This document shows positions 1,643-25,997 of a stretch of DNA of 32,233 nucleotides, one piece after another. The translations under genes were made by a program, and so were the position numbers. The DNA is taken from assembly GCA_044227045.1 (NCBI GenBank), contig JBGAFW010000028.1:83667-115899 (forward strand), given 5' to 3'. A model generated the notes under the pieces. It searched no databases and was not told where the DNA came from. It saw only the letters and a program-made list of their open reading frames with translations. Origin of the DNA: Labilithrix sp. (lineage in GTDB: Bacteria; Myxococcota_A; Polyangia; Polyangiales; Polyangiaceae). Position 1 is the stretch's first letter; each line of letters starts with the position of its first letter.

Positions 1643-2052
1643 ACGACCCTCCGGAACAAGCAAATCAATTCAAATACGAAGCTCGCGTGACCTGACTCGT
1701 CGATCCTGTGAGAGCCGTCATAGCGAGCCGCGCGTAAACCAGGCTATCGACTGTGACAAGACGGCGCAAGTTGACCAACCATTCACTTCTTCTCTCCGGT
1801 GGACAGCCCGCGCTTTGCGGCAAGCGCGTGCAGGTGCTGTCCCACCTCGTGCGTGCGTCGTCGCGCGCGCGCAGCAAGGTGGGCCGTCGCGCTTGGTGCG
1901 CGGTTGGTGCGCGTTCCGTGACGCAGGCGTTCTTCGATTCCCCGCGTCAGCGGCAGCGCCACTTATGTAGGAGCGAGCGGGTTCTCGCCGGGATCCGAGC
2001 CTCCTTCATCTCGCGGCGGCACGGCATGGTTGGTGCGAACGCGCCACGCTCC

Positions 2053-3255
2053 ATGAAGCTCGGTCTGTCGCCTGTTCTCCTCTCGACCCTCGCGCTGTCG
2101 TCTTCCCTCCTCTTCGGCGTCGGTCTTGGGGGATGTGGCGACTCAGACGAACCGGGATACTTCGAGTCGACGAACGGGACCTCGCCCGGTCAGCGCGGCG
2201 CCGACCCCACCGGCGGTCCGGCAGGCGGCGGTGGTGACGGCGGGACAGGTGCAGCGTCCTCCTCTTCTTCTTCGTCGTCCTCCTCGTCGTCTGGGTCGGG
2301 TGGTCCGAGCGCGAAGTGCACGCAGGGGACGAAGTCGTACGGCACGATGAAGTCGTGGGAGTGCGTTCCTTCGGGCGCGCCGGCGAAGGCTGGGCTCGTC
2401 GTCGCGCTTCACGGCTACACGCAAGGCGTCGAGCAAGGTGGAACGAACGGCGCTCCGTGGGGCTTCAAGCCGACGTCGCAGTGGGACGTGCTCGCGGAGA
2501 AGCACAAGTTCTACGTCCTCTACCCTGACCACGGGACGTCCGCGTTCAGCTGGTATGCGTTCTACGGCACGAGCGGGATCGGTCGCACCGATCTCGAGCC
2601 GACGAACATCGCTCAGATGGTGAAAGACTTCATGGCGACGCACGACGTCGACCCGAACAAGGTCTTCATCAACGGTCTCTCCGCCGGTGCGTACATGGCC
2701 GTCGTGATGCTCGCGACGTACCCCGATCTGTTCGCGGGCGGGTCCACGTTCGCGGGCGGCGCGTACGGCTGCTCGACCTCATGCGCCGCGCTCGGCAAGA
2801 AGGGCAGCGGCTGGACGTGGCCGGGTAATCACTCCTCGAGCCTCGTCAAGCAGGCATACGCGACGGTGTGGAACGACGCGAACGCGCGGAAGCCGAAGCT
2901 CCTCATCTTCCAAGGCGACGCCGACGGCGCCGTCACGCCCGAGAACCTCGCCGACCTTACCCAACAATGGAACGGCGCGCTCGGCATCACCGGCGCGGGC
3001 AAGACGAGCACGCTCAAAGGACACGCCTATACCGAATACGACAGGAACGGCACCGTCATGCTCGCGAGCGTGACGATGAAGGGCATTGGCCACGGCACGC
3101 CGGTGGATCCTGGCGCAGGCGCCGATCAGGGCGGCTGGGATCCGGAGCCGAGCCAAACGATGAAGAACGACCAGAACGCGACGCAGGACTGGACGAACAG
3201 CACAGGCATTTATGGCCCTTACTACTCTGCAAAGTTCTGGGGCCTGATTCCCTGA
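2053..3255 (+). CDS. Extracellular esterase of the PHB-depolymerase/LpqC alpha/beta-hydrolase family, lipoprotein with poly-Ser linker
   Basis: ORF is open from 1753, but the first credible start is ATG 2053 (MKLGLSPVLLSTLALSSSLLFGVGLGGCGD, signal peptide plus lipobox-like LGGC), or ATG 2026. The run of 12 Ser (S12) is a linker. Motifs VVALHGYTQG, nucleophile elbow GLSAGAY and FQGDADGAV(TP) match esterase/PHB depolymerase family proteins. Confidence 0.7.
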   Translation: MKLGLSPVLLSTLALSSSLLFGVGLGGCGDSDEPGYFESTNGTSPGQRGADPTGGPAGGGGDGGTGAASSSSSSSSSSSSGSGGPSAKCTQGTKSYGTMKSWECVPSGAPAKAGLVVALHGYTQGVEQGGTNGAPWGFKPTSQWDVLAEKHKFYVLYPDHGTSAFSWYAFYGTSGIGRTDLEPTNIAQMVKDFMATHDVDPNKVFINGLSAGAYMAVVMLATYPDLFAGGSTFAGGAYGCSTSCAALGKKGSGWTWPGNHSSSLVKQAYATVWNDANARKPKLLIFQGDADGAVTPENLADLTQQWNGALGITGAGKTSTLKGHAYTEYDRNGTVMLASVTMKGIGHGTPVDPGAGADQGGWDPEPSQTMKNDQNATQDWTNSTGIYGPYYSAKFWGLIP

Positions 3256-3268
3256 TCCCAATTCATTT

Positions 3269-3287
3269 ATCGTGCGCCTCGCACGAT
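3269..3287. terminator. Perfect 8-bp stem/3-nt loop hairpin (ATCGTGCG-CCT-CGCACGAT) between convergent esterase and kinase genes; candidate bidirectional terminator
   Basis: Inverted repeat read directly. It lies in the 62-nt gap between stop 3255 (+) and stop 3318 (-). No clear U-tract, which is common in high-GC genomes. Confidence 0.4.
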
Positions 3288-3317
3288 AGCCCACAATCGC
3301 TAACCCATTATCCAGCC

Positions 3318-5207
3318 CTACTCTCCAGGTGGGCTGAATGCGAACGGCACGTTCGTCGAGGTGGGGCCGTCGGAGCGCGGAAACGTCAGGGTCGAAATGA
3401 TCTGCGCGACGCAGGCGCTGACGGCCCTGTTGGGCATCGACCCAGACACGACGGGACCCCGTACAGTTCCATCGGGCTCGATCACGAAGCTCGTCGTCAC
3501 AGTCCCCTTGAGCGTCGGATCTTTTCGACGGGCCGTCTCGTAGCAGGCGTCGATCCGCGGACGTGCGCGGTTGATCACACGTTGGATGTCCTCGGTGGTG
3601 AGCCGTCGAGCATGTGGTGGATCCGACAGATGATTGGGAGGCGACGTGACTGGGCGGAGTGGCGTCGGTGACCGCGGGGGCTCGAGCGGCTTCGTCTCAT
3701 CGTACGCGACGGGCGGCGGCGCCATCGGGGGGCGCGCCGGCGGGCCTGGCAAGTCGTCGCTCGCGAGCGGGGGTGGTGGAAGCGATGTGAGCGACGGAGG
3801 AGGAGGTGGGACGTTCGCGATTGGCTTCGGCGACCACGGTCCGATCAAGAGAAACGCGCCGAGCCCCATCACGAGCACGCTCACTGCGGTGACGATCGAG
3901 CCTTTAACCTTCGCGCTCACAGGAGGCGCTTCCCGCGGCGTGTCTGGCGAGGCCTCTCGTCGTAGAGCGGGCAGCTGATCTCTCGGTGACGTGTCGACCA
4001 GCCCCGTCTCCTCCGCTATGGGCGGCGGCGGAGCGGTCGGCACGTCTGGGTTTGGCCCGAATACGAGCGGGATCGTGTCGTGGCTCGCGAGCCGCTCGGA
4101 CCCCGCGTCGACGATTTGTTTGGCGCCGATGGCCTCGTCGCGGAGCGTGCTCGGTGGGGAGTCAGCCTCGGTCGCGCTCGGAACGGGCGACGCCTTGGCG
4201 ATCGGCTTCATCGCGACCGTGGGTGCGGTCGGATCGACCGGCGCAGGAGCCGTATCCGGAGGCAGCGTGACGTCGGGGATCGGGACCGCGTCGAGCTTCA
4301 AGACCGGATCGAGCAGCCGCCACGCTTCGCGCGCGTTCGGCGGGCGCTTCGCCGCGTCCCGATCGAGGCACTGCGCGAGCCATTCGTCGAAGCCGGCAGG
4401 GATCGTGAACGCGCGCCCGAGCTCACGCGCGCGATCGGACGCGGTCGGGATCGGATCGAGGACGATCTCGCGCATCAGCTCGGCCATCGACGCGTCTTCG
4501 GAGGCCGAGCGCCAAAACGACCGCCCGGTGAGCACGTAGAACGCGATCAAGCCGAGCGCCCAGACATCCGCGGCAGGGAGGATCGCCGATCGACGCGTCT
4601 GCTCTGGCGCCATCCAGATCGGTGAGCCCATCGCCGCGGTGCTCTTCGCGCCCGCCTCCGCGGTGAGCTTCGCGATGCCGAAGTCGAGGAGCTTCACGTG
4701 CACGAGCGCGCTCCGCTTGGGGTCGCCCTCGGCCGCGGCTCCAGCGCGCTTTGGCGTCGCGATGAACACGTTCTCGGGCTTCAGATCGCGATGCACGATG
4801 CCGGCGGCGTGCGCTTCCCCTAAGCCATGGCAAAGCTGCTCGAAGATCCGACGCGCTTCGCCGGCGCGCAGCGCGCCCTTCGCGGTGACGTACTGATCGA
4901 GATCCTGACCGGTGAGGAGCTCCATCACGAGGAACGGCAAGCCTGAGTCCGCGTCGACGCCCGCCGCATGCACCTCCACGATGTGCTCGCTCTCGATCTG
5001 CGCGCCGATGCGCGCCTCTTGCTCGAAGCGACGGCGCAGATCCGGCTTCGCGACGAGCTGCGGGTGCATGATCTTGAGCGCCCGATGCTTGCCGGTGCTG
5101 ATCTGCTCCACGACGTAGATCGAGCCCATCCCACCGGCGCTGAGCGGCTCGACGATGCGATAGCCCGTCGCGAACACGGAGCCGCTTCGTAGTGCGGTGG
5201 GCTGCAT
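3318..5207 (-). CDS. Bitopic membrane Ser/Thr protein kinase: N-terminal Hanks kinase domain, Pro-rich linker, one TM helix, C-terminal AgmX/PglI-type (TonB-C-like) periplasmic domain
   Basis: ATG at 5207. Hanks kinase motifs are present: glycine-rich loop SAGGMGSIYVV, ALK (VAIK-type Lys), HRDLKPENVF, DFGIAK, GSPIWMAPE. TM helix VTAVSVLVMGLGAFLLIGPW (aa ~437-458) followed by PPPPP tracts. The last ~90 aa (DIQRVINRARPRIDACYE...FVIEPDGTV...ACVAQIISTLTFP) resemble the myxobacterial AgmX/PglI C-terminal domain. Confidence 0.9.
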   Translation of the reverse strand: MQPTALRSGSVFATGYRIVEPLSAGGMGSIYVVEQISTGKHRALKIMHPQLVAKPDLRRRFEQEARIGAQIESEHIVEVHAAGVDADSGLPFLVMELLTGQDLDQYVTAKGALRAGEARRIFEQLCHGLGEAHAAGIVHRDLKPENVFIATPKRAGAAAEGDPKRSALVHVKLLDFGIAKLTAEAGAKSTAAMGSPIWMAPEQTRRSAILPAADVWALGLIAFYVLTGRSFWRSASEDASMAELMREIVLDPIPTASDRARELGRAFTIPAGFDEWLAQCLDRDAAKRPPNAREAWRLLDPVLKLDAVPIPDVTLPPDTAPAPVDPTAPTVAMKPIAKASPVPSATEADSPPSTLRDEAIGAKQIVDAGSERLASHDTIPLVFGPNPDVPTAPPPPIAEETGLVDTSPRDQLPALRREASPDTPREAPPVSAKVKGSIVTAVSVLVMGLGAFLLIGPWSPKPIANVPPPPPSLTSLPPPPLASDDLPGPPARPPMAPPPVAYDETKPLEPPRSPTPLRPVTSPPNHLSDPPHARRLTTEDIQRVINRARPRIDACYETARRKDPTLKGTVTTSFVIEPDGTVRGPVVSGSMPNRAVSACVAQIISTLTFPRSDGPTSTNVPFAFSPPGE

Positions 5208-7120: not shown

Positions 7121-8344
7121 TCACGAGCGCCGGACGCGCGCCGGGACGCGCTCGAGGTCGCCCTCGGGGGCGGCGCGCGGCGTGTTGTCTTCGAGCAGCG
7201 TCGCGTACGTGATGAGCGACTTGTTGTCGAAGCGCTCCCTCGCGCGAAGGAGGACGCTCTCGACGTTGCGACGTCGCTCCTGCTCGCGATCGCGAAAGAG
7301 CGCGGCCTGCGCGCCTCGAGCCGGCCCGAGGTCCTGCACCGAGACGCCCGTGAGTCGAACGCGCGCGGAGGCGTCGAGCGGAAAGCGATCGAGCAGCGTG
7401 AGGCAGGCGTCGTGGAGCGTGCGCGTGTCGTTCGCGGGTGACGGGAGCACCATCCGACGCGTGAGGAGCGTGAAGTCGTGCAGCTTCAGCTTCACCACGA
7501 CGGCACGCGCGGCGATTCCCGCGGCAGTGAGTCGCTCGGCGACGCGCGACGCATGCGCCAGGAGCGTCCGCGCGATGCTCTCCCGCGTGGTGAGGTCGAC
7601 GTCGTAGGTGCACTCGGCCCCGATCGACTTGGCTTCGCGATCGGGGACGACGTCGCGCGGATCGATGCCGCGCGCGAGCTCGGAGACCTCCGGTCCCCAC
7701 TTGCCGAGCGCGCGCTCGAGCGCAGCGGGCTCTGCCTTCGCGAGATCGCCGAGCGTCTTGTAGCCAAGCGCGCGAAGCGACGGCGCCGTCTTCGGCCCGA
7801 TGCCCCACATGCGCTCGATCGGGAGCGGCGCGAGGAACGCGCCGACGTCTCCGCTGACGACGGTGAGGCCGTTCGGCTTGTCCATGTCGCTCGCGATCTT
7901 CGCGACGAACTTGCTCGAGGCGACGCCCGCCGAGCATGTCAGCTTCGTCGCCTCGTAGACGTCCTTCTTGATCAGGGCGGCGATCGTAGCGCCGTCGCCG
8001 AAGAGGCTCCTCGAGCCGGTCACGTCGAGGAATGCTTCGTCGATCGAGAGGCCTTCGACGAGCGGCGTGTACTTGTGGAACACGTCGAAGACCTGACCGC
8101 TCACCTCTCCGTAGCGATCACCACGCGGAGGTACGACGACCAGCCGCGGACACCGCCGGAGCGCCTCCGCCATCGGCATCGCGGAGCGGACACCGTACTC
8201 GCGCGCGGCGTACGAGGCGGCCGCGACGACGCCTCGCCGGCTCGCACCTCCAACGACGAGCGGCTTGCCGCGAAGCTCCGGATTGTCGCGCTCTTCCACG
8301 GAGGCGAAGAACGCATCCATGTCGACGTGGAGGATTTGACGCAA
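7121..8344 (-). CDS. dinB: DNA polymerase IV (Y-family translesion polymerase)
   Basis: N-terminus (L/M)RQILHVDMDAFFASVEERDNPELRGKPLVVGG aligns residue-for-residue with E. coli DinB MRKIIHVDMDCFFAAVE... TTG start at 8344 has AAGGAG 7 nt upstream. Palm, fingers and little-finger regions are recognisable along the length. Confidence 0.95.
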   Translation of the reverse strand: MRQILHVDMDAFFASVEERDNPELRGKPLVVGGASRRGVVAAASYAAREYGVRSAMPMAEALRRCPRLVVVPPRGDRYGEVSGQVFDVFHKYTPLVEGLSIDEAFLDVTGSRSLFGDGATIAALIKKDVYEATKLTCSAGVASSKFVAKIASDMDKPNGLTVVSGDVGAFLAPLPIERMWGIGPKTAPSLRALGYKTLGDLAKAEPAALERALGKWGPEVSELARGIDPRDVVPDREAKSIGAECTYDVDLTTRESIARTLLAHASRVAERLTAAGIAARAVVVKLKLHDFTLLTRRMVLPSPANDTRTLHDACLTLLDRFPLDASARVRLTGVSVQDLGPARGAQAALFRDREQERRRNVESVLLRARERFDNKSLITYATLLEDNTPRAAPEGDLERVPARVRRS

Positions 8345-8381
8345 CTTCTGGCTCCTTACGCACCCGCGAGCGGACGAGGTC

Positions 8382-8406
8382 GTGACAAAGAATTACAACC
8401 TTTCAC
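8382..8406. promoter_or_regulatory. AT-rich imperfect palindrome GTGACAAAG-aattacaa-CCTTTCAC in the dinB upstream / hydrolase 5' region (candidate operator)
   Basis: Inverted repeat with GTGA...TCAC ends, read directly. It lies 38-62 nt upstream of the dinB TTG start in otherwise ~70% GC DNA. It matches neither the E. coli nor the M. xanthus LexA-box consensus as I recall them. Confidence 0.3.
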
Positions 8407-8546
8407 CGGCCCCAGACTGGTTTTTTCGCGGCTCGGGCGTCCTTACCTCGAGCGACTGCAACGCCAGCGAAAGACAGGGGAACGCTACGATGATGACGAG
8501 CACCGAGAGCACTAGCGAGGCGACGATCAAGGCGAAGACGATCATG

Positions 8547-9707
8547 CGAAGGAAAGCGACCCCCTCGAAGATGAGGAAGAAGCGCGTCGTCCTCTTCGTG
8601 CTCGCGGTCATCCTCGTCCTCTTGGGTCGCCCTGCCGCACATCACGCGCGGGCCGCGTCCTTGCTCATGTCGTTCTCGGATCCGAACGCGACCTCCTCGG
8701 CGTCGGTGAACGAAGAGCGCATCACGTTCCTCCGCGACGGAGAGTCGATCCCGGCGCGCCTCTACATTCCGAGCAGCGTCTCGCATCCGCTCCCCGGCGC
8801 CCCCTCGAGCACGCCAGGCGTCGTCCTCGTGCATGGCGTGCATCACGGCGGCATCGACGAGCCGCGCCTCGAGCGCTTCGCTCGTGCGGTCGCCGGCGCC
8901 GGCCTCGTCGTGATGACGCCGTCGGTGAAGGAGCTCAGCGACTACAAGGTCGCGCCGCGTTCGATCGACACCGTGGGCGCCGCGGTCGAGACGCTGCGCG
9001 CGCGTCTCGGCACCGAGAAGGTCGGCCTGATGGGCATGAGCTTCGGCGGAGGCATCTCGCTCCTCACCGCGTCGGACGCTCGCTTCGTCGATCACGTCTC
9101 GTTCGTCGTGGCGGTGGGCGCACACGACGACCTCGGTCGCGTCTCGCGCTTCTTCATCAACGACGAGATCCCCGAGCCTTCCGGCGGGACGAAGTCGCTG
9201 AAGGCACATGGCTACGGCGTGATGGTGCTCGTCTACTCGCATGTCGAAGACTTCTTCCCGGCGGCCGACGTGCCGGCTGCACGGGAGGCCCTCCGCCTCT
9301 GGCTCTGGGAGAAGCGCGACGACGCCCGCGCCGTCGCGAAGACGCTCTCACCCGAGGCCAAGGCCAAGATGGACAACCTGTTCGACGCCGGCGTCGGCAC
9401 GATGAAGACCGAGATCCTCTCCGAGATCGAGTCGCACACCGAAGACATGGCGAAGGTCTCGCCGCACGGTCACCTCGGCTCGATCAAAGCGAACGTGTAC
9501 CTGCTCCACGGCGAAGGCGACACCGTCATCCCCGCGACCGAGACGCTCTGGCTCGCGCACGACGTCCCGCCCGCCCGCCTCCGTCAAGCGCTCGTGAGCC
9601 CCGCGATCGAGCACGTCGAGCTCAAGTCCCCAAGCGCCGCCGACAAATGGGCGCTCGTCCACTTCATGGGCGAAGTCCTCAGCGACGCGGACACCGCGGC
9701 GAACTGA
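8547..9707 (+). CDS. Secreted/membrane-anchored alpha/beta-hydrolase (dienelactone-hydrolase/prolyl-oligopeptidase-like serine hydrolase)
   Basis: The frame is open from GTG 8382, but that start lies inside the dinB promoter palindrome. Likelier starts are ATG 8490, 8547 or 8574 (MRKKRVVLFVLAVILVLLGRPAAHHARA, a signal/anchor). Nucleophile elbow GMSFGGG, HGxxD(T) and a downstream His fit the alpha/beta hydrolase fold. Confidence 0.65.
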   Translation, partial: RRKATPSKMRKKRVVLFVLAVILVLLGRPAAHHARAASLLMSFSDPNATSSASVNEERITFLRDGESIPARLYIPSSVSHPLPGAPSSTPGVVLVHGVHHGGIDEPRLERFARAVAGAGLVVMTPSVKELSDYKVAPRSIDTVGAAVETLRARLGTEKVGLMGMSFGGGISLLTASDARFVDHVSFVVAVGAHDDLGRVSRFFINDEIPEPSGGTKSLKAHGYGVMVLVYSHVEDFFPAADVPAAREALRLWLWEKRDDARAVAKTLSPEAKAKMDNLFDAGVGTMKTEILSEIESHTEDMAKVSPHGHLGSIKANVYLLHGEGDTVIPATETLWLAHDVPPARLRQALVSPAIEHVELKSPSAADKWALVHFMGEVLSDADTAAN

Positions 9708-9733
9708 GGCCGAGCGGAGCGCGCGCCGGCGCT

Positions 9734-9765
9734 TTCGGCAGAGCGGATTCTTGGCCTCTGCCGAA
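9734..9765. terminator. 10-bp perfect stem hairpin (TTCGGCAGAG-N12-CTCTGCCGAA) between convergent genes
   Basis: Inverted repeat read directly. It sits in the 62-nt gap between stop 9707 (+) and stop 9770 (-). Confidence 0.45.
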
Positions 9766-9769
9766 GTCG

Positions 9770-10531
9770 CTACGAGTCGATGCGGAGCGGCTGGTCGATG
9801 CGGGTGTCTTCGAGCTCTTCGCGGACGATGCGCGCGGCCCAGTCGGAGGCGACGAGCGAGAGGTGGGTCGACTCGCTCGTGCGGAAGAATTTGCCGTTCT
9901 TCTCTCGCAGCGTCCGCACGGTGACCTTGCGTACCGGCAGGTCGAGGACGCGGTCGAGGCGCGCGGAGAGCTCGGCGGGGAGGAAGTCGAGCACGGAGCG
10001 CGCGCTTCCTCGCATGAGCGAGATGCGCTCGGCGAGCGACATCTCGGACGCCGTGTGCGGACACTGCGCGAGCGACTCGAGCGTCATCCGAAACAAGAAC
10101 GTGGCGAACGAGGGAGCGACGATGCGGGCGTCCTCGGTGTCGTGCGCGACGAGGATGACCGGCGGCTCGTTGGCGCCGGGCTCACCGAGCGACGGGGCCC
10201 AGCCCCACTGATCGCCCGCGCGGCTCTCGGCGAACGGGATGAAGACGAAGTTCGTAGGCCAGCGCGGGAGGCGACCTCCGTGTCGCTCGACGCGCGCGGC
10301 GATCTCTTGCGCGTTCAGCCATTGGATGTCGGTGACGGCGAGCGCACGCACGAGCGAGCTTCGAACGCGCTTCACCTTCGCGGTCTTCTTTTTCTTGCTC
10401 TTCGTGCTCGACTTCTTCTTCGCCGTCACGGCCGGCCGCGACAGGAGACCTGCTTCGGTCATGCGCACGTAGCCCGCGGGAATGGCGAACCCGAAGCGCT
10501 CCGAAACGATGCTTGCAAGATGCATCTTCAT
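9770..10531 (-). CDS. SMI1/KNR4 (SUKH-1)-like protein with an inserted histone-H1-like poly-Lys tract
   Basis: ATG 10531 with a purine-rich RBS. N-terminal FGFAIPAGYVRMTE resembles the SUKH 'LP.dYk.FL' motif. Later, FVFIPFAESRAGDQWGW...PPVILVAHDTEDARIVAPSFATFL matches the SUKH 'iPfa..gGd.....pVv.wdhE....vA.sFaeFL' core. Between them lies KKKSSTKSKKKKTAKVKRVR. Confidence 0.45.
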   Translation of the reverse strand: MKMHLASIVSERFGFAIPAGYVRMTEAGLLSRPAVTAKKKSSTKSKKKKTAKVKRVRSSLVRALAVTDIQWLNAQEIAARVERHGGRLPRWPTNFVFIPFAESRAGDQWGWAPSLGEPGANEPPVILVAHDTEDARIVAPSFATFLFRMTLESLAQCPHTASEMSLAERISLMRGSARSVLDFLPAELSARLDRVLDLPVRKVTVRTLREKNGKFFRTSESTHLSLVASDWAARIVREELEDTRIDQPLRIDS

Positions 10532-10588
10532 TTCTCTCTTGGTCGGTCTGTCTTGTCTTCGTGGGCGTTCGCTCGTCGGCGTGAACGC

Positions 10589-11218
10589 TCACTCGATCTT
10601 CACGGGCATGCCATACGACTTCAGCTCCGCGCGTGCCTCGGCGCCTGGCGCCGTGACGACGAGGAGGACCATGCCGATGCCGGGGCAGTAGGTCGTCTCG
10701 TAGCGTGAATTGGGAGGACGTCCGCCGTCTTCTACCGTGCGAACGCACGACGCATAGTGCCCGGCCGGCACATCGACCGCGACGTCGGTCGCTGCGATGC
10801 GTGTCGATCCGCCATGCTCTCCGGTCCACGAGACGCCGACCTCGAGCGGGCCCTTCAGGATGTACGCGCCGACGCCGACCTTCGACGACGGGTCGTCGTA
10901 CGCGACGCCGTCTTGGGCGAGGACGAAGCGCTTCGTGGCGTTCGAGAGCCGGAGCTCACCGTGCGTTTTGTCGGTGCGATGCACTTTGGCGACGAGCATG
11001 CCGCTGTCGCCGCCGTCCTTCGTGACGTAGTTGTAAATCTTCCCCTCTTCGAGCGGGAAAAAGCGCTCGAAGTCCGTGCTCGCGGCAGGGGTGGCGGGCG
11101 TCGCTGGCGACGATGCGGCCGGTGTCCCGCACGCGGTCGTCAGCAGGACGAGACCGGAAACGACAAGGCACCTGACGGGTTCGAGAGCGCGCACGATCCG
11201 GACGCATCCTACGCGCAT
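10589..11218 (-). CDS. Small secreted protein/lipoprotein of unknown function
   Basis: ATG 11218. N-terminus is hydrophobic (...CLVVSGLVLLTTACGTPAASSPATPATPAAS, Cys followed by a Pro/Ala/Thr/Ser linker). It is 57 nt upstream of the SUKH-like gene on the same strand. No recognisable catalytic motif. Confidence 0.5.
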   Translation of the reverse strand: MRVGCVRIVRALEPVRCLVVSGLVLLTTACGTPAASSPATPATPAASTDFERFFPLEEGKIYNYVTKDGGDSGMLVAKVHRTDKTHGELRLSNATKRFVLAQDGVAYDDPSSKVGVGAYILKGPLEVGVSWTGEHGGSTRIAATDVAVDVPAGHYASCVRTVEDGGRPPNSRYETTYCPGIGMVLLVVTAPGAEARAELKSYGMPVKIE

Positions 11219-11245
11219 CTCGTTTTGGTCGCTTCTCTCCGTGCG

Positions 11246-11264
11246 AATTGATTTTTCGTCAATT
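11246..11264. promoter_or_regulatory. AT-rich palindrome AATTGA-tttttcg-TCAATT in the divergent lipoprotein / HlyD-operon promoter region
   Basis: Perfect 6-bp arms read directly. It lies 28-46 nt upstream of the lipoprotein start (11218) in a locally AT-rich ~350-nt intergenic region. Confidence 0.3.
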
Positions 11265-11571
11265 TCGAGGCGATTTCAGGCAGGTAGGAGATTGTAGGAC
11301 GGCAAACATCTTCGTTCGCTGCTGACATACGACAGTCAGGAAAACGACACGATCGTACCTGCCATCCGTTGCGGGGCGAATAGGGCGGATCCACTCTCTC
11401 GCCGGCGCGAGTCCCGTGGTAACTCGCGCACGCGCCTCGCAAAACAAACCGACAGGTCCTGGTCGAAATCGCAGTCGGCCGATTGTCGGGTCTTCACCGA
11501 ATCCCTCCTTCGCGGCGGTCCCTCTTTTCGAGAGAAAGCGGAATCGGCCCACCAACCTCACGGATTTCAGA

Positions 11572-14734: not shown

Positions 14735-14738
14735 GCGC

Positions 14739-15902: not shown

Positions 15903-15923
15903 ATCCAGCCCCCATCACAAATC

Positions 15924-15979
15924 GAAGCCCACCACCGCGCTTGCCCCCCAATGGGGTGATGCGCCCGGCGGTGGGCTTC
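15924..15979. terminator. Complex GC-rich stem-loop (GAAGCCCACCaCCGCGC...GCGCCCGGcGGTGGGCTTC with inner CCCCA-a-TGGGG hairpin) after the ABC operon, followed by TTCTGATCT
   Basis: Inverted repeats read directly. It is located 22 nt after permease stop 15902 and 18 nt before ATG 15997. Confidence 0.45.
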
Positions 15980-15996
15980 TGATCTACCCTGGGCTC

Positions 15997-17659: not shown

Positions 17660-20600
17660 ATGACCAAGACGACGACGCGCGCAGTGCTCCTCCTCGTTCT
17701 CTTCTCTCTCCTCGTCGTCGCGCAAGGAGGGTGCGCGCACGGCAAAGAGGCGCCGCCGAAGCTCACCTCGCGCCCACCCGCGCTTGCGGAAGGCACGGAG
17801 GCGATCGACGTGGCGGTCGATTGGGACGCGCATCCGCAAAGCAGCAAGACCGCGGACGCCAAGATCTCGCTGACAGCCTCGGACGGGTCGGGCCTCGTGC
17901 TGAGGTCGATCGACGCGCGCGCCGTGCTCTATGGCCCGCTCGCGTTCACCGAGGTGCACCTCGTCTTCGCGAACCCCGAACCCGTGATGCGCGAGGGCAC
18001 GTTCGCGATCGCGCTGCCCGCCGGCGCCGCGGTGAGTCGCTTCGCGATGAAGCTCCCGCAAGGGTGGCAAGAAGGCGAAGTCGTCGAGCGGCAGTCGGCA
18101 CGCGCGACCTACGAGACGTTCCTGCGAAAGCGCGTCGACCCCGCGATGCTCGAGAAAGACACGGGCTCGAGCAACGTGTTCCGTGGACGCGTCTTCCCGA
18201 TCCTGCCGCGGCAAGAGAAGGAGATCGTCATCGCCTACACCCAGACCTTCACCGCGGCGTCCGAGCCGTATCGCTTGCCGCTCGTCGGGCTCCCCTCGGT
18301 CGAGCAGCTCGACATCCAGCTCTTCGTCCCGAGCACGAAGAAGGCCTTCGTCGTGCATCGAAATGGCGTCAGGCCCGATCATGACTTCGAGGTGTCGCTC
18401 GCGGGTACACCCGACGCCGTTCGAGGTGGCCGCTTCGCCGTCGTGCGCGTGTCGGATCCCGACGCCCGCCCCGCGACGTCGAGCGGAGCGCCGAGCGGCG
18501 CGATGCAAGGTGATCTCGCCGTGCTGATCGACTCGAGCGCGTCGCGCATCGGCACGTACGAGCGCGACGTCGCCGCGGTGACGCGCATCGTCGGGGCGCT
18601 ACACCCGAGTGCGATCAAGGTCGCGTGCTTCGACCAAGAGGTGGAGCCGATGGCCTCGCTCGCGGAGGCAGCGAGGCGGCGACCTGCCGGCGCGACCGAT
18701 CTCGAGCGAGGTCTTCGCTGGCTCAAGACGACCGGCGCGAAGCGCGCGATCGTCCTCACGGACGGCTCGATGACGACCTCACCGCTGCCACCTGCCGCGC
18801 TCGGCGCGATCGCGAAGGAGATCGGCCTCGATCGGATCGACGCGATCGCGACCGGTGGGGTCCGCGCCGACACGATCGCGCTGCGTGCGCTCGCGCTGGG
18901 CGGCACCGTGGTGGACGTGGAAGACGCGCCGGGCGACGTCGCGGTCGCCCTCAAGATGCCCCCAGGCAGGGTCGGTCGCGCGTCGTTCGAAGGCGCCGCG
19001 ACCGCGTGGCCTTCGTCGCTCGCGAAGGCAGGGGCGCGGCGTTCGTCGGCGCTCGCGTTCGTCGAGATCGCCGAAGACAAACCGCTCCGTGTCGTGATGG
19101 ATGGCAAAGGTGGCGCGCAGCCGAGAGACGTGACGCGCATAGACACCGCACCTGCGGCGTTGATCGAGCGCGCGGTCGCCGAGGCGAAGATCCGCGAGCT
19201 CGAGGACGAGCGCGCGACGACGACGACGGAGGCGCGCAAGACCGAGCTCGCACGCGAGATCGTGTCGCTCTCCGTTCGTCATCGCATCTTGACGGAGCTC
19301 ACCGCGATGCTCGTGCTCGAGACCGAGGCGGACTACAAACGCTTCGACATTCCACGCGAGGCGATGCGCGACATTCCGGTGGTCGGACCGCGCGGCGTCG
19401 AGATCGTTCCTCGGGGTGGTGGTCAGGTGGTGCTCCCGCCAAGCCAGAAGAGCGTCTCGCCGATGATCGACGCCATCCGCGCCGGCGACCGGACCGCCGA
19501 CACCGATCGCGACGGCATCCCGGACGCCGACGATCGCTGCCCGAACGAGCCGGAGACGTTCAACGGCTTCGAGGACGACGACGGGTGTCCGGATCGCGGC
19601 ACCGTCATCATCGAGGCGAACCAGATCCTCATCTTGCAGATGGTGCACTTCAAGGACGGCTCGGCGGAGATCCTTCCGGAGTCGCTCCCCATCGTCCAGG
19701 CGCTCGCCGACACGCTCCGCTTTCACCCCGAGTTCGATCTCGTCGCGATCATCGGCCACACCGACAACCGCGGCTCGCCCGACGTCAACCGCGAGCTCTC
19801 CCTCCGGCGAGCGATGGCCGTGCGCGCGGCGGTGGTGGCGCGCGGCGTCGAGCCGCGACGGCTCATCGCACGCGGTGTGGGCGGCGCGTTCCCGATCGAT
19901 CCGAAGAACGACGCGGAGGCCTTCGCTCGGAATCGACGCGTCGAGTTCAAGATCCTCGTCGCGGACGGGAGCGCGACCGGCGTCGAGGTCCCCGGGCTCG
20001 ATAGGGCGCTCAAGCCGTCTGGCAAAGAGCAGGAGAGCGTCATGCCCTCGATGACCGTTCGTCGCGGCAAGCCCGCGCCCGTCGCCCATGCGCTGAGCGG
20101 GAAGCTCGCCGCGATTGCGCAGCTGCTCGAGCAGAAGAAGGCCGATGACGCGCTCCATGTCGCCGAGACGTGGCTGAAGACGTCGCCCGACGACATGCTC
20201 GCCTGGACCGCGCGCGGCCAAGCGCTCGACGCGCTGAATCGATCACGCGAGGCGGCGCGATCGTTCGGCTCGATCCTCGAGCTCGCCTCACGTCCCGAGC
20301 AGCGCCGCGCGGCGGCCGGTTGGCTCGAGGCGCTCGCCGCGCGACACAAAGAGGCGGGCGAGCTCGCGATCGCGCAGTATCGACGTGCCCTCGAGGAGCG
20401 GCCGGAGCATCCATCCTCCTATCGGCTCCTCGCGTGGTCCCTCGTGCGCGGAGGACACATCGACGAGGCGCTCGCCACGACGCTCGATGCGCTCGACCAC
20501 GCGGCGAGCTTCGATCCACGACGCTTCCCGATGGCGGTGGAGGCGTTGAAGAGAGACGCAGGCGTGCTGGCCGTCGCCGCGGGAAAGAACAAGGCGCCGG

Positions 20601-21950: not shown

Positions 21951-24900
21951 TCAGAGCGCGCCGAGATCGAGCACGGTGCCCTCGTTCATGATCGTGAAGG
22001 GGCGCGGATCGATCGTGACGTTGCCCTTGCCGTCGTGGCGGACGACATGGACGACGCCGAGCACGTCGCCGCCTGTCCCTTTACGCTGGAGCCGAACGAC
22101 CGCGTTCAGCGCGCTCACGCGCTTGACGTCGGTGGCAAGATCGAGCGCCTCTGGGCCGAAGCCATCGAGCGCTTGGCTCGTCGTCGCGCCGTTGCGCTCC
22201 CCTTTCGCGTCGAACGCCTGGACGTCGATGTCGCTCGTGTCGGTCTCCCATGTCGCGACCGCTTGCACGGTCGATCGATCGCGGCTTCGCGCGTGGAGGA
22301 AGATCGCCTTCGACTCGATCATGTCGCGCTTGGCGGGCTCGGCCTGCGCCCAGGCCGCGGCGGCGAGGCCGAGATCGGTCGCCAAGAGATCGCTCACGCT
22401 GGCGAAGCGGAGCTCGTAGCGTCGCTTCATGCCGTTCGCGGCCGCCTCGAACGCGGCCTCCGGCTTGCCTGCGCGAAGGAGCTCGAGGCAGAGCAAGTGA
22501 TGCGACGAAGGTTGGTCGGGACGCTCGCTCGCCGCGCGACGGAGGAGATCGATCGCGATCGGATCTCCCGGACGCACCCGCGCGATCCGCACCGCCGCGG
22601 CGCGAAGCATCTCCGCGCGCTCCGGGTAGAGATCGGCGAGCGATCCATAGGCGCGCGTCGCGCGGTCTTTGTCGCCGGCCGCTTCGTATGCTTGCCCGAG
22701 CGCGACGAGGGCGATCGCGCTCGTGCTCCCCTCCCGCGCGCGAAGCTCCGTGGCCGCGTCGATCGCAGCCTTCGCGTTCGGCGCCGTCGTCGACGGTGAG
22801 GCGTCGCCGCCGAGGGACGCTGGCACGAAGGCCATCACGCGCCGATAGTCCATCGACCACGGAAAGAGCCTCTCCGCGGGCGACGGCGGCGCAGCCCCGG
22901 CAGACAGACGGAACGGCGACGGCGACCAGATCGTGGACGCGCTGACCGGCAAGTGCGCGGCCGGCGGAGACGCTTCGTCCTCGGCCGTGATCGGCGCGAG
23001 CATCAGCGGGTAGACCACCGTGATGTTGGCTCCCTCCGGAGCCGGGAACATGAGGTGGCGGAACACGTCGACGACGCACTCGATCGTCTTCTTGTCGGAG
23101 ATGTCCGAGCCGGCGTCCATCGCGGTCCCGACGGAGCCATCGCGCGTGACCACGAACTTCACGCTCACGCGTCCGGAGAATTCGCCGCGTCGGCGGAGGC
23201 CGTCTTCGTAACATGCGCGGAGGGCTCCCCAACGTTGCCGCACGATCCGCTGGATCACCTCCGGCGGAACTCGACCCGACACCGTCGTCGTCGCTTGCCG
23301 CATCGCCGGCGCCTTGGTCACGTGGCCCCGCGCCGGCGCGCTCGGCGTGGAAGGACTCGGAGGTGGCGGCGGAGGCGGCGCGGCCGACGACGACGCCTCT
23401 CGGCTCCGCATCCGCGCGACATCGGAGTCGTTCTCGAGCACGATGAGCGACGTGAACGGGCTCGCGAGCTTGTTCTTGCGCGCGATCGCGACGATCTCGC
23501 TCTTCCACGCGTCCTTCGTCGCAGCTTGTTCCCCACGGGCGATCAAGGCGTCGAGCTTTGCGACGGCCGACACGTGCTCGAGCATCGGCGAGGGCGCCGC
23601 GGTCACGGCGCTCGCGTCGATCGAATGCACCTTCCCGCCGATGTGTGCACGAAGAGGCGCGGAGCTCGGCATGCGCGCGAGCACGACGCGCGTCTCGTCG
23701 GGCGAGGCCGCCTCGAGCGCGGCGGTGGACGTCCACGTCGCGCCTTCGACGCTCACGGGCACGCGCGCCGCGACGCGCGAGCGGACACGCGCCTGGACCG
23801 TCTCGGCCGAGAGCCGCGGCGCGTCGTCGATCACCACGCCGTCGCGCGCGAAGATCGCGCTCGTCACGAGCGGGCGATAGAGGCGCAGGTCCGCGAGCGC
23901 GGAGGTCCCGAGCACATCGACGCGCTCGACCCCCGCCTTCGCGAGCTCGCCCATCGCGACGCGAAGCCGTGCTCCGTCGGCGGTCGGGCCTACACCGCCA
24001 CCGACGAAGATGACGCGCGTGGCGCGGATGCGCTTCGCCTCGACGCGCGCGGCCTCGAGGCCTCGCTCGAGATCGGCGACGCCGAGCGCGCCTCGAGCGG
24101 CGAGCGCCTTCGGCAGCGCCGCAGAGAGCGACGCGAGATCGCCGTCGTAGAGCCGCTCGGTCGATTGATCGTACGCGACGACCGCGGCGCGCGTGCGGCC
24201 CGACGATGACGACGCGAGCGCGCCGACGAGGCTCGCGGCCGCCTCGAGGGTTCCTTCCTTCGCGGCGCTCGTCTCGACGACGAACACGACCGCGCCTTCG
24301 AGCGGATCGGGCTCCTTCGCGACGAACGTGGGCACGCGCAGCGCGACGAGCTCACCCGCGCGCGCGACCTCGTTTCCGGTAGACCGCGCGGCGACGAAGC
24401 TCACGTCCGCCGTGGGCCGATCGTCTTCGAGGTGGATCGAGATCGGCTCCGTCGCGCCCTCGATGACGGAGACATCGAGCTTGTGCACCGCAGGAAGACC
24501 GCGAAGCGGAAACCACACCGGGGCGTCGGCGCCGCCGACCTCGGAGATGTACTCGATCGCGATCTCCTTCGCGCTCGCCCCGTCGATCGGGAACACGCGC
24601 GCCGAGATCTCGCGCTCGCGCCGTTGCTCGACGAGGAGCGGATCACGACGGCGATGAAGGATCTCTTCGTAGGTCTCACGCGCTGCGCCGATCTCGGCGG
24701 CGTCGGCCTCGCGCCACTCGCCCGAGATCTTCATCGCGAGCCGCGACACGGACGAGCGCGGCGGGAGCGTCATCCGGAAGCGCCCCTCGAGCGTCGACGG
24801 CGACGTGTTCCAGAACGTCGCATGCACCGCCGTTCGCGCGAGCGGACCGTGAACGTGGATGTTCACCGTGAGCTCCGCGAGCCGGATCGGCGTGCTGTCG

Positions 24901-25106
24901 TCCGCGATGAGCGATAGCGGCGCGCTCGCCGCTGGCGCCGAGCTCTGCGGGCCCGCGCTCGTGCCCCCGACCGGGATGACCGCGAACGCTCCGCGCGGTG
25001 ACGCGCCCGCGCTCGGAGTGGTGACGGCCGGGCTGCACGCCGCCTGGGCGATCAAAGCGGCGAACGCGATCGCCGAACGCGAGCCAAAGACGATACGTGG
25101 ACGCAC
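21951..25106 (-). CDS. Giant secreted protein, paralogue of 17660..21010: VIT - vWA - Pro-rich linker - AgmX/PglI C-terminal-like (TonB-C-like) domain - TPR region - YfaP/DUF2135-like C-terminal domain
   Basis: GTG 25106 with a GAGGTGA SD. Signal peptide MRPRIVFGSRSAIAFAALIAQAAC. VIT-like N-terminal region. vWA MIDAS (AVVFVVETSAA...). PPPPPPSPSTPSAP linker. Then EVIQRIVRQRWGALRACYEDG...VKFVVTRDGSVG...ECVVDVFRHLMFP, homologous to the kinase tail at 3321-3596. C-terminal VATWETDTSDIDVQAF...GVVHVVRHDGKGNVTI...FTIMNEGT aligns with the C-terminus of the first VIT protein. Confidence 0.85.
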   Translation of the reverse strand: MRPRIVFGSRSAIAFAALIAQAACSPAVTTPSAGASPRGAFAVIPVGGTSAGPQSSAPAASAPLSLIADDSTPIRLAELTVNIHVHGPLARTAVHATFWNTSPSTLEGRFRMTLPPRSSVSRLAMKISGEWREADAAEIGAARETYEEILHRRRDPLLVEQRREREISARVFPIDGASAKEIAIEYISEVGGADAPVWFPLRGLPAVHKLDVSVIEGATEPISIHLEDDRPTADVSFVAARSTGNEVARAGELVALRVPTFVAKEPDPLEGAVVFVVETSAAKEGTLEAAASLVGALASSSSGRTRAAVVAYDQSTERLYDGDLASLSAALPKALAARGALGVADLERGLEAARVEAKRIRATRVIFVGGGVGPTADGARLRVAMGELAKAGVERVDVLGTSALADLRLYRPLVTSAIFARDGVVIDDAPRLSAETVQARVRSRVAARVPVSVEGATWTSTAALEAASPDETRVVLARMPSSAPLRAHIGGKVHSIDASAVTAAPSPMLEHVSAVAKLDALIARGEQAATKDAWKSEIVAIARKNKLASPFTSLIVLENDSDVARMRSREASSSAAPPPPPPPSPSTPSAPARGHVTKAPAMRQATTTVSGRVPPEVIQRIVRQRWGALRACYEDGLRRRGEFSGRVSVKFVVTRDGSVGTAMDAGSDISDKKTIECVVDVFRHLMFPAPEGANITVVYPLMLAPITAEDEASPPAAHLPVSASTIWSPSPFRLSAGAAPPSPAERLFPWSMDYRRVMAFVPASLGGDASPSTTAPNAKAAIDAATELRAREGSTSAIALVALGQAYEAAGDKDRATRAYGSLADLYPERAEMLRAAAVRIARVRPGDPIAIDLLRRAASERPDQPSSHHLLCLELLRAGKPEAAFEAAANGMKRRYELRFASVSDLLATDLGLAAAAWAQAEPAKRDMIESKAIFLHARSRDRSTVQAVATWETDTSDIDVQAFDAKGERNGATTSQALDGFGPEALDLATDVKRVSALNAVVRLQRKGTGGDVLGVVHVVRHDGKGNVTIDPRPFTIMNEGTVLDLGAL

Positions 25107-25953: not shown

Positions 25954-25972
25954 GCTAGACGCGTTGTCAGCA
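25942..25972. promoter_or_regulatory. 31-bp imperfect palindrome TGCCGTCAAC-aagCTAGacgc-GTTGTCAGCA centred on CTAG in the divergent NrtR-like / WYL-regulator promoter region (candidate shared operator)
   Basis: 8 of 10 arm positions pair, read directly. It lies 26-56 nt upstream of ATG 25998 and overlaps the most upstream candidate start of the NrtR-like gene. Confidence 0.4.
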
Positions 25973-25997
25973 AAACGTCATATTTGGACGACGTCTC

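Follow-up and report, generated by a model that had tools for sequence, protein, structure and literature searches.

A TonB-like AgmX/PglI module carried by a receptor kinase and a VIT-vWA protein of Labilithrix sp.: probable independent copies of a widespread docking domain

Introduction

A stretch of 32,233 nucleotides from Labilithrix sp. (assembly GCA_044227045.1, contig JBGAFW010000028.1), here called the window, encodes a receptor-type Hanks Ser/Thr kinase and, 18 kb away from it, a large protein with VIT and vWA domains (VIT-2). The initial annotation of this DNA proposed that the C-terminal tail of the kinase is homologous to an internal domain of VIT-2, and that the two proteins dock to the same envelope partner or to each other. 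If true, this proposal would connect eukaryote-like signalling by a kinase with an envelope scaffold of the vWA/VIT type. In the present study, we asked whether the homology is real, to which domain family the two segments belong, and whether their presence at one locus points to a dedicated kinase/VIT-2 system. The features considered are listed in Table 1.

Table 1. Features of the window, with coordinates in nucleotides of the whole stretch
Feature	Coordinates	Strand	Basis
Receptor-type Hanks Ser/Thr kinase gene, 629 aa	3318..5207	-	ORF and translation; Pkinase PF00069
Kinase C-terminal NF033768 (TonB-CTD-like) domain, aa 537-624, Cys555/Cys599	3336..3599	-	NF033768
Pro-rich, TonB-like periplasmic spacer of the kinase (predicted), aa ~459-536	3600..3833	-	Composition; AlphaFold
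Single transmembrane helix of the kinase, aa ~436-458	3834..3902	-	Kyte-Doolittle; AlphaFold
Cytoplasmic kinase domain, aa 16-289	4341..5162	-	PF00069; AlphaFold
VIT-1 gene, VIT-2 paralogue, 1116 aa	17660..21010	+	BLASTP; outside the shared-domain pair, defines the cassette site
TSP3 and OmpA-like peptidoglycan-binding cassette of VIT-1, aa 607-767	19478..19960	+	PF00691; NF033763
VIT-2 gene, 1051 aa, probable lipoprotein	21951..25106	-	Cys24 after hydrophobic leader
C-terminal beta-sandwich of VIT-2, aa ~946-1050, common to VIT-1	21957..22271	-	BLASTP; model
TPR region of VIT-2, aa ~778-936	22299..22775	-	TPR Pfam matches, all below gathering cutoffs
Internal NF033768 (TonB-CTD-like) domain of VIT-2, aa 600-706, Cys632/Cys677	22989..23309	-	NF033768
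HMM match inside the VIT-2 domain, aa 615-703	22998-23264	-	NF033768, 67.8 bits
ITIH-like VIT and vWA body of VIT-2, aa ~61-575	23382..24926	-	VIT PF08487; Foldseek

Results

The proposed homology was borne out by pairwise alignment, by profile-profile comparison (E 2e-35) and by family search. The kinase segment (aa 538-629, nt 3321-3596) and the VIT-2 segment (aa 612-705, nt 22992-23273), whose limits had been placed correctly in the initial annotation, shared 28 of 90 positions in BLASTP (31% identity; 47 bits, E 5e-13), which is far beyond chance. When all six-frame open reading frames of the window were searched with phmmer, each segment retrieved only its counterpart (E 5e-9 and 2e-9), and beyond this reciprocal pair the next match came only at E > 0.05. 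In hhalign, profiles of 34 kinase tails and of 31 domains from VIT-2 orthologues aligned over 96 columns with a probability of 99.9% (E 2.2e-35). Furthermore, both proteins passed the curated cutoff (40 bits) of the NF033768 profile, the kinase with 69.4 bits (profile positions 2-91 of 92) and VIT-2 with 67.8 bits (positions 3-91 of 92).

The two segments also have both conserved cysteines in common, as had been claimed, since C555 and C599 of the kinase align with C632 and C677 of VIT-2. This pair was invariant in all of the 36 tail kinases, the 31 VIT-2 orthologues and 28 diverse family members examined, and it presumably forms a disulfide. In the AlphaFold models, the elements of both segments follow one another as alpha-alpha-beta-beta-alpha-beta, and the cysteines lie in helices 2 and 3 (kinase tail: H538-547, H549-562, E568-576, E581-589, H594-605, E616-624, pLDDT 95-98; VIT-2 domain: H615-623, H626-640, E645-653, E658-664, H672-683, E695-704, pLDDT 78-94).

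The module is already catalogued and is very common in myxobacteria. Its assignment as AgmX/PglI-type and TonB-C-like proved right. A family profile of 28 sequences, searched against the PDB, retrieved 13 chains of TonB C-terminal domains (E 1e-5 to 1e-3, profile positions 29-97) and nothing else of significance; a profile of two sequences gave marginal TonB matches together with a spurious match to a designed repeat. TonB_C was in addition the commonest Pfam match in the family, found in 15 of 44 members scanned (best E 6e-19), these being members with at least 200 uncovered residues taken from the best representatives. The homology to TonB is detectable at profile level only: the kinase tail stayed under the cutoffs of PF03544 (19.1 bits, E 0.0018, versus 24.6) and TIGR01352 (17.3 versus 27.1), and VIT-2 gave no match to either of them.

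By HMMER, the module was found in 27,145 representative clusters (50% identity) at E<=1e-3 and in 9,486 at E<=1e-10. There are one to six copies per protein, arranged in tandem, and in 129 of the 150 best representatives the module lies at the C-terminal end. The NF033768 domain of the kinase stops 5 aa short of the C-terminus, and that of VIT-2 is internal, with 345 aa after it. The partner domains include VIT, Peptidase_M56, Pkinase, Cellulase, Sel1, ExbD, FHA, TolA and TPR, and NCBI already labels members of both architectures as 'AgmX/PglI C-terminal domain-containing protein' (P0168, P0170, P0283). Named homologues came from Sorangium, Polyangium, Polyangiaceae, Labilithrix, Minicystis and Kofleriaceae, which agrees with a Myxococcota host; the GC content of the window is 65-70%. 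A word-indexed search with the 99-aa kinase tail, a short query for such an index, returned one fragment (P0001, 92% identity).

VIT-2 is probably a lipoprotein, and its Cys24 is kept in 21 of 31 orthologues. A protein identical to it is present in the Logan assembly of SRR28480388. The VIT domain was recognised clearly (PF08487, 61.2 bits versus a cutoff of 26.5), and VWA_2 was sub-threshold by sequence (19.5 versus 27). Foldseek aligned VIT-2 with inter-alpha-inhibitor heavy chain 1 (6fpy) over 588 columns (E 1.6e-19), and ITIH, vWA and TPR matches predominated for the full-length protein. The MIDAS motif, DxSxS in its intact form, is degenerate and reads ETSAA, with DTSAS in 24 of 31 orthologues and DSSAS in VIT-1. 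The TPR region forms helical repeats in the AlphaFold model and matched consensus TPR proteins and MamA in Foldseek. A Pfam search at E up to 10 gave no match for the C-terminal beta-sandwich and the vWA segment, and a hydropathy scan found no transmembrane helix in VIT-2. The linkers on both sides of the module are predicted to be disordered (pLDDT < 50 at aa 575-599 and 707-740). The internal module copy is kept in about 35 VIT-2 orthologues, down to about 35% identity and including Sorangium; a search of species-representative genomes with VIT-2 gave one distant locus, in a Kofleriaceae MAG (30% identity).

VIT-1 and VIT-2 are paralogues with a swapped middle cassette, OmpA-like in the former and TonB-like in the latter. 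BLASTP aligned their N-terminal parts (aa 57-562 with 51-566, 31% identity, E 3e-42) and their C-terminal parts (aa 847-1110 with 798-1051, 34%, E 4e-27), and the middle part was not aligned. The cassette of VIT-1 contains an OmpA domain (PF00691, 62 bits, aa 664-759) within a TraB-like NF033763 match that spans the whole cassette. The scaffold had been described as extracellular, which is doubtful. To our knowledge, TonB-type C-terminal domains are periplasmic in all cases studied; together with the OmpA-like domain of VIT-1 at the same position, this suggests that VIT-2 is periplasmic.

The cassette site bears also on what the module does. Instead of docking to proteins, it could serve mainly as an anchor in the cell wall (peptidoglycan). 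In that case, the VIT-2 module would take over the job of the OmpA-like domain of VIT-1, and the kinase module would tether or sense the sacculus in the manner of the PASTA domains of PknB-type kinases. Peptidoglycan affinity has been reported for the TonB C-terminal domain, and the VIT-2 module occupies the same site as the peptidoglycan-binding domain of VIT-1, an arrangement conserved at the related locus L003. However, other family members have at this site a CarboxypepD_reg domain or nothing, so that a shared site does not imply an equivalent function. Moreover, no peptidoglycan-binding motif was identified in the module, and GltG and GltJ, its only modelled members, contact proteins. We consider an anchoring role of this kind unlikely.

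A link between the two proteins of the window, in which they share an envelope partner or bind one another and the scaffold feeds Ser/Thr signalling, would be in keeping with the occurrence of one domain family in both of them inside one 32-kb window. TonB-type C-terminal domains are protein-docking modules (PMC11761067), and in principle the same adaptor fold on two proteins could compete for one ligand. Since VIT-2 has TPR repeats and the C-terminal domains of GltG and GltJ have been modelled on GltD, a TPR protein (PMC11761067), a contact between the kinase tail and the TPR region is conceivable. Against such a link, the two copies were among the most distant pairs of the sampled family: the VIT-2 domain ranked 193 of 206 among the matches to the kinase tail, and the reverse search gave rank 191 of 204. 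They scored 28.8 bits against each other; with unrelated proteins, the kinase tail reached up to 65.7 bits and the VIT-2 domain more than 110 bits. That the kinase and VIT-2 had recently exchanged the domain, or gained it by a recent duplication, was rejected on the grounds of these ranks, of the 31% identity and of the conservation of each copy in its own deep orthologue group.

The gene neighbourhoods gave the same answer. At L003, which is collinear with the window and retains WYL, NrtR, VIT-2, SOD, VIT-1, DinB and MBL, the syntenic site has no kinase, and MBL is directly followed by an orthologue of window gene 92-1663. The 527-aa gene that takes the syntenic place of the kinase at L003 was considered as a kinase candidate and rejected, as it has no similarity to the kinase and is 40% identical to gene 92-1663 from residue 1. 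No tail kinase was present in the flanks fetched for six VIT-2-type loci, namely the fully collinear L003 and five others (L004, L005, L010, L011, L012) with at most 10 kb of flank per side, in which a kinase as distant as that of the window, at 18 kb, would escape. Conversely, the flanks fetched for three tail-kinase loci (L006, L008, L009) had no VIT gene. In the window itself, 13 unrelated housekeeping or miscellaneous genes on both strands separate the kinase from VIT-2. With its tens of thousands of protein clusters and wide range of partner domains, the module is thus a ubiquitous TonB-C fold without specific co-occurrence, the outcome that had been named beforehand as speaking against the proposal. 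Neither mutual docking of the two proteins nor their docking to a shared partner was supported, and the same holds for a tie between the scaffold and Ser/Thr signalling 18 kb off, given distant copies and no conserved linkage; we hold such a link to be very unlikely.

The kinase has an intact catalytic domain (PF00069, 138.3 bits versus a cutoff of 31.7), in which K45, HRD 139-141, N146 and DFG 175-177 show no variation across 36 homologues. The model of this domain has a pLDDT of mostly 84-98, with a low-confidence loop at aa ~150-190. The transmembrane helix follows a 430-aa cytoplasmic part (Kyte-Doolittle maximum 2.45 across aa 434-460; AlphaFold helix aa 434-453), and the spacer after it is 34% Pro (aa 473-536) and predicted to be disordered (pLDDT < 50). 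Among the extracytoplasmic domains that can be recognised in the kinase subfamily, the module is the commonest, and the tail is present in 43 of the 120 closest kinase homologues. Literature searches on the AgmX/PglI domain, on Pkinase with TonB_C, and on the myxobacterial kinome with TonB found no paper discussing such kinase fusions. It is extremely improbable that the kinase works as an energised force transducer of the TonB kind, with its tail pulling an outer-membrane target by an ExbBD/TolQR/AglRQS-type motor. Its TonB-like layout, in which a transmembrane helix and a spacer rich in Pro precede the C-terminal domain, would suit such a role, as would the place of GltG and GltJ, founding members of the domain family, in a motor-driven complex. 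However, the helix GSIVTAVSVLVMGLGAFLLIGPW has no His and hence no SHLS-type motor-coupling motif, a scan of 23 window genes by Pfam (three of them also by NCBIfam) gave no member of the MotA/ExbB, ExbD or TolQR families, and the kinase scored far under the cutoffs (650 and 450) of the full-length GltG and GltJ equivalogs (NF033760 and NF033761; 55.1 and 29.5 bits), matching them in the tail region alone.

Discussion

We consider it likely that the two segments are independent copies of one known, lineage-expanded periplasmic docking module, with no dedicated kinase/VIT-2 system behind them. Their presence in one 32-kb window can be accounted for by a high copy number of the module in Polyangia-type genomes, as suggested by the cluster counts and by two further copies met by chance in about 159 kb of DNA flanking the related loci. 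By a crude estimate that rests on these two copies (n=2), a second copy within 32 kb is expected in about 20-30% of cases.

The module is the AgmX/PglI C-terminal domain (NF033768), with an alpha-alpha-beta-beta-alpha-beta fold like that of the TonB C-terminal domain, one Cys pair and an N-terminal helical extension specific to the family. The kinase follows a TonB-like layout, in which one transmembrane helix leads through a Pro-rich spacer of about 80 residues to a globular C-terminal domain, and such a layout would let the module reach a peptidoglycan- or outer-membrane-associated partner in the periplasm. There, it may couple the occupancy of this partner to the cytoplasmic Hanks kinase. 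The coupling is probably passive, since the helix is without the motor-coupling His and the neighbourhood is without exbBD/tolQR genes. The module of VIT-2 is a bead on disordered linkers between the ITIH-like VIT-vWA body and the TPR and beta-sandwich part, at a variable cassette position that holds an OmpA-like domain in VIT-1, and it may serve as the envelope-anchoring or docking unit of a lipoprotein scaffold in the periplasm. If the module behaves like TonB, and like GltG and GltJ in their AlphaFold models, docking would most likely occur by beta-strand augmentation and/or by contact with helical (TPR-type) proteins. In the models of the Agl-Glt complex, the C-terminal domain of GltG takes a beta-strand of GltF and rests on the helical N-domain of GltD (PMC11761067).

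Among known systems, the nearest are the gliding proteins GltJ (AgmX) and GltG (PglI) of Myxococcus xanthus, whose domain gave the NF033768 profile 'myxo_SS_tail' that both segments pass, and whose Cys pair, the 'SS' of that name, is conserved in both. The kinase resembles them further in its overall layout, with a signalling domain on the cytoplasmic side that a single transmembrane helix joins to a long, disordered stretch of Pro-rich sequence in the periplasm, ending in the C-terminal domain. However, its cytoplasmic part is a Hanks kinase, whereas GltG has FHA domains and GltJ has ZnR/GYF domains; no glt or agl genes are found in the window; and VIT-2 carries the module internally, is without a transmembrane helix and matched the GltG equivalog (62.8 bits, cutoff 650) in the module region only. 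With the TonB C-terminal domain (PF03544, TIGR01352; PDB 1ihr, 2gsk, 5lw8, 6i97), the module has a homologous beta-beta-alpha-beta core, and the kinase has the Pro-rich spacer and single transmembrane helix ahead of the C-terminal domain. It differs from TonB, which lacks the Cys pair, in the extra N-terminal helix pair with the first Cys, in its fusion to a kinase or insertion in a VIT-vWA protein, and, in the kinase, in the absence of the SHLS/His transmembrane motif for ExbB binding and of an exbBD neighbourhood.

The general plan of the kinase is that of the PknB/Stk1 PASTA receptor kinases, in which one transmembrane helix connects the cytoplasmic kinase to a binding module outside the cytoplasm, and NF033483 matches its kinase part at E 1e-50. 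Its sensor, however, is not PASTA but a TonB-like domain carried by a long spacer rich in Pro, and the kinase scored 173 bits against a cutoff of 450 for the PknB_PASTA equivalog. VIT-2 resembles ITIH1 (6fpy) over its VIT-vWA body, with the VIT Pfam domain present, but it is of bacterial lipoprotein type, has a degenerate MIDAS, and continues into the variable cassette, TPR repeats and a beta-sandwich. Inner-membrane-tethered vWA 'force transducers' have been proposed beside TolQR-like motors (PMC12204202). They share with VIT-2 the combination of vWA with an envelope-spanning logic of the TonB/TolA type, and a TPR gene accompanies them; in those proteins, however, the vWA fold replaces the TonB C-terminal domain and a motor-binding transmembrane helix is present, whereas VIT-2 keeps a TonB-like domain beside its vWA and has neither a transmembrane helix nor motor genes nearby.

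A wider picture, in which the tail kinases read outer-membrane or periplasmic machines, can be drawn as a speculation with little chance of being right as a whole. The tail kinases, a large and apparently undescribed class, could be receptors that use TonB-box-like beta-strand capture, as the kinase counterpart of TonB-dependent cell-surface signalling. VIT-1 and VIT-2 could be a two-part periplasmic ITIH-like scaffold, with the OmpA-like cassette on peptidoglycan and the TonB-like cassette on a protein partner, and the window kinase could be one of several clients of the partner of VIT-2.

Conclusion

These results may aid the annotation of myxobacterial envelope proteins and the choice of targets for interaction studies, although their value is modest and they raise no new question alone. 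The ITIH-like VIT-vWA lipoproteins have a cassette site at which OmpA-like, TonB-like and CarboxypepD_reg-like modules alternate, and the AgmX/PglI TonB-like module is among the periplasmic adaptor domains that the Myxococcota reuse most widely.

Results

The GC content is 65-70% across the window, in which about 23 genes were recognised by third-position GC. The receptor-type kinase and the giant VIT-vWA protein VIT-2 are separated by 13 functionally miscellaneous genes on both strands, and the positions of the features are collected in the table below.

Positions and make-up of the kinase, VIT-2, its paralogue VIT-1 and neighbouring features
Feature	Window (nt)	Strand	Residues (aa)	Description
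Gene 92-1663	92-1663	minus	523 in total	weak ASH/HYDIN-type Ig-like domain matches
Esterase and kinase genes	1753-5207			
Kinase ORF	3318-5207	minus	629 in total	Hanks domain, disordered cytoplasmic linker, one transmembrane helix, Pro spacer, tail domain
Kinase transmembrane helix			~436-458	single
Kinase Pro-rich spacer			473-536	34% Pro
Kinase tail	3321-3596	minus	538-629	NF033768 module
LRR and MacAB-like block	11416-17505			HlyD/ABC/FtsX/FtsX and LRR-protein genes
MacAB-like cluster	11416-15902			
ABC ATPase, longest ORF	12372-13568	plus		ABC_tran match begins only at aa 197
VIT-1 ORF	17660-21010	plus	1116 in total	
VIT-1 cassette			607-767	thrombospondin-type repeats (TSP3) and OmpA-like peptidoglycan-binding domain, at VIT-2 TonB-like position
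VIT-1 C-terminal beta-sandwich	20600-21007	plus		
VIT-2 ORF	21951-25106	minus	1051 in total	
VIT-2 VIT + vWA body			~61-575	ITIH-like; Foldseek to ITIH1 6fpy, E 1.6e-19, 588 columns
VIT-2 MIDAS site	24261-24275	minus	278-282	ETSAA
VIT-2 TonB-like domain			600-706	disordered linker on each side
VIT-2 segment aligned with kinase tail	22992-23273	minus	612-705	NF033768 module
VIT-2 C-terminal part				TPR repeats, then beta-sandwich
VIT-2 C-terminal beta-sandwich	21957-22271	minus		
NrtR-type Nudix and WYL/HTH regulators	25177-26705			NrtR-type gene directly upstream of VIT-2 on its strand, 70-nt gap; WYL/HTH gene divergent

The initial annotation had read the kinase tail and the internal VIT-2 domain as homologous, and its coordinates for both were exact. 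BLASTP aligned the two over 90 residues at 31% identity (E 5e-13), and when a profile of 34 kinase tails was set against one of 31 VIT-2 orthologue domains, the probability was 99.9% (E 2.2e-35, 96 columns). When all six frames of the window were searched with each segment, only the other was retrieved (E ~1e-9), with nothing else below E 0.05, and therefore the window holds exactly two copies of the module. Both passed the curated cutoff of 40 bits for NF033768 (myxo_SS_tail), the AgmX/PglI C-terminal domain, with 69.4 bits for the kinase tail and 67.8 for the VIT-2 segment, and both matched the gliding proteins GltG (PglI) and GltJ (AgmX) in their tails only. The two cysteines (Cys555 and Cys599 in the kinase, Cys632 and Cys677 in VIT-2) are aligned and were invariant in every sequence set examined.

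The TonB_C match of the kinase tail was sub-threshold (19.1 bits, E 0.0018), and the profile was matched by 15 of 44 larger family members (best E 6e-19). A 28-sequence family profile run against all PDB sequences retrieved 13 chains with a TonB C-terminal domain (E 1e-5 to 0.04), including 6i97, 6fip, 5lw8, 6sly, 1ihr, 2gsk and 1u07, and no significant match beyond TonB C-terminal domains. These matches span profile positions 29-97; compared with TonB, the first ~28 positions, two helices with the first Cys, form a family-specific extension, and neither Cys is present in TonB. The AlphaFold models of the kinase tail (helices 538-547, 549-562 and 594-605; strands 568-576, 581-589 and 616-624; pLDDT 95-98) and the VIT-2 domain (helices 615-623, 626-640 and 672-683; strands 645-653, 658-664 and 695-704) agree with each other. 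The label AgmX/PglI-type, TonB-C-like was therefore correct.

The Hanks domain of the kinase is intact (138 bits), with the catalytic Lys, HRD, Asn and DFG invariant. The leader of VIT-2 ends at Cys24, so this protein is probably a lipoprotein. VIT-1 and VIT-2 can be aligned over the N-terminal part (E 3e-42, 31% identity) and the C-terminal part (E 4e-27, 34%) but not over the middle; they are paralogues with a swapped middle cassette, OmpA-like in one and TonB-like in the other. The TonB-like cassette is kept by the ~35 closest of 81 VIT-2 homologues, a set that includes Sorangium cellulosum and reaches down to ~35% identity; the internal copy therefore belongs to the old and stable make-up of this orthologue group. 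The more distant homologues have CarboxypepD_reg at this site in 3 of 37 cases and otherwise no recognisable module.

The C-terminal beta-sandwich common to VIT-1 and VIT-2, with a conserved WETDxSDxD motif, is kept in nearly all 81 homologues and matched no Pfam family at thresholds up to E 10. The MIDAS motif DxSxS is degenerate in VIT-2; it reads DTSAS in 24 of 31 orthologues and DSSAS in VIT-1. Metal-dependent ligand binding may have been lost in this lineage. A divergent WYL/HTH regulator adjoins the NrtR-type gene upstream of VIT-2. Five related loci (L002, L003, L004, L010 and L011) have kept this arrangement, some with an inserted GST gene, which suggests co-regulation of VIT-2.

A two-sequence profile was run exhaustively with HMMER against 1.84 billion representative proteins and found the module in 27,145 clusters at E<=1e-3, of which 9,486 also reached E<=1e-10. 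The best 150 matches carry one to six tandem copies, placed at the C-terminal end in 129, and include one kinase and about seven VIT-2 relatives. In the larger of these proteins its partners are VIT, M56 peptidase, kinase, cellulase, Sel1, ExbD, FHA, TolA and TPR. The module ends 43 of the 120 closest kinase homologues, the others ending in FGE-sulfatase, Sel1, DsbA/thioredoxin, F5/8-type C or other domains.

Discussion

From the shared module, the initial annotation had suggested that the kinase and VIT-2 dock to the same envelope partner or to each other. Such a specific link was supported neither by domain kinship nor by gene order. As a match of the kinase tail, the VIT-2 domain ranked 193 of the 206 domain-bearing proteins retrieved (28.8 bits; best non-orthologue 65.7); conversely, the kinase tail ranked 191 of 204 (30.4 bits), with many unrelated proteins above 110. 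The activated-sludge metagenome locus L003 has a VIT-2 orthologue (41% identical) and is collinear with the window through Wzy_C, the WYL regulator, NrtR-Nudix, VIT-2, SOD and the VIT-1 orthologue (35% identical over full length, OmpA cassette retained), followed by alpha/beta hydrolase, DinB, two small genes and MBL hydrolase. There the next gene after MBL is the orthologue of gene 92-1663 (E 1e-15, 40% identity starting at residue 1), and therefore the esterase and kinase are an insertion/deletion difference, as is the LRR and MacAB-like block. The L003 gene after MBL was rejected as a kinase counterpart, having no similarity to the kinase. In the fetched flanks, no tail-bearing kinase was found at the VIT-2-type loci L004, L005, L010, L011 and L012, and no VIT gene at the tail-kinase loci L006, L008 and L009. 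Two extra module copies turned up unsought in ~159 kb of DNA flanking the compared loci, so that a second copy within 32 kb would be expected in about one-fifth to one-third of cases, a crude estimate (n=2). Overall, the observation and the family assignment stand, and the functional link is not supported; a widespread fold with no specific co-occurrence is what the initial annotation had itself named as speaking against it.

Several further features of these loci were recorded. L003 keeps the VIT-1/VIT-2 pair with the Fe/Mn superoxide dismutase gene between (7756-14171, 35-41% identity) and the N-terminus of the gene 92-1663 product (20057-20437), a probable lipoprotein; it has an extra TauE/TPP-enzyme/aldehyde dehydrogenase block. 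In the Kofleriaceae MAG locus L001 (9782-13879), a VIT-vWA homologue without middle cassette is convergent with an abutting 302-aa protein ending in an NF033768-like/TonB_C-like domain (44 bits), which could be a chance or a split arrangement. In L008 (5642-12058) the tail-bearing kinase P0262 directly adjoins a MacAB-like HlyD/ABC/FtsX/FtsX cluster, and the window cluster lies 6 kb from the kinase, making two cases only. The longest ORF of the window ABC ATPase shares ~430 nt with the HlyD gene; its true start is probably near 12.8 kb.

GltG and GltJ, the founding members of the family, are known from models rather than from solved structures. The models place the TonB-like C-terminal domain of each against the helical N-domain of GltD, a TPR protein, and show a GltF beta-strand joining the GltG domain by augmentation (PMC11761067). 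By analogy, the module is probably a unit for docking to proteins in the periplasm. In the kinase, a spacer with the length to span the periplasm would carry it as a binding head that reports to the cytoplasmic kinase; its role in VIT-2 would be to anchor or dock the ITIH-like scaffold. The scaffold had been described as extracellular; the OmpA-like domain of VIT-1 argues for a periplasmic location instead. A peptidoglycan-binding role of the module, suggested by its exchange for an OmpA-like domain at the cassette site, is less likely. The kinase shares the layout of TonB, GltG and GltJ except for its large cytoplasmic head, but it is unlikely to be an energised TonB-like transducer, because its transmembrane helix has no His, and so no SHLS motor motif, and no ExbB/ExbD/TolQR-type motor genes lie in the window. 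In a recent survey of transducers of the TonB/TolA type, vWA proteins tethered to the inner membrane are described as transducers located next to motors (PMC12204202); the window proteins are arranged differently.

The domain family is already catalogued and both architectures are already auto-annotated, members of each bearing the NCBI name 'AgmX/PglI C-terminal domain-containing protein'. Our literature search found no paper on kinase fusions with the NF033768 domain. What remains of value is the exchange of cassettes that sets VIT-1 apart from VIT-2, together with a large, unstudied class of tail-bearing kinases.
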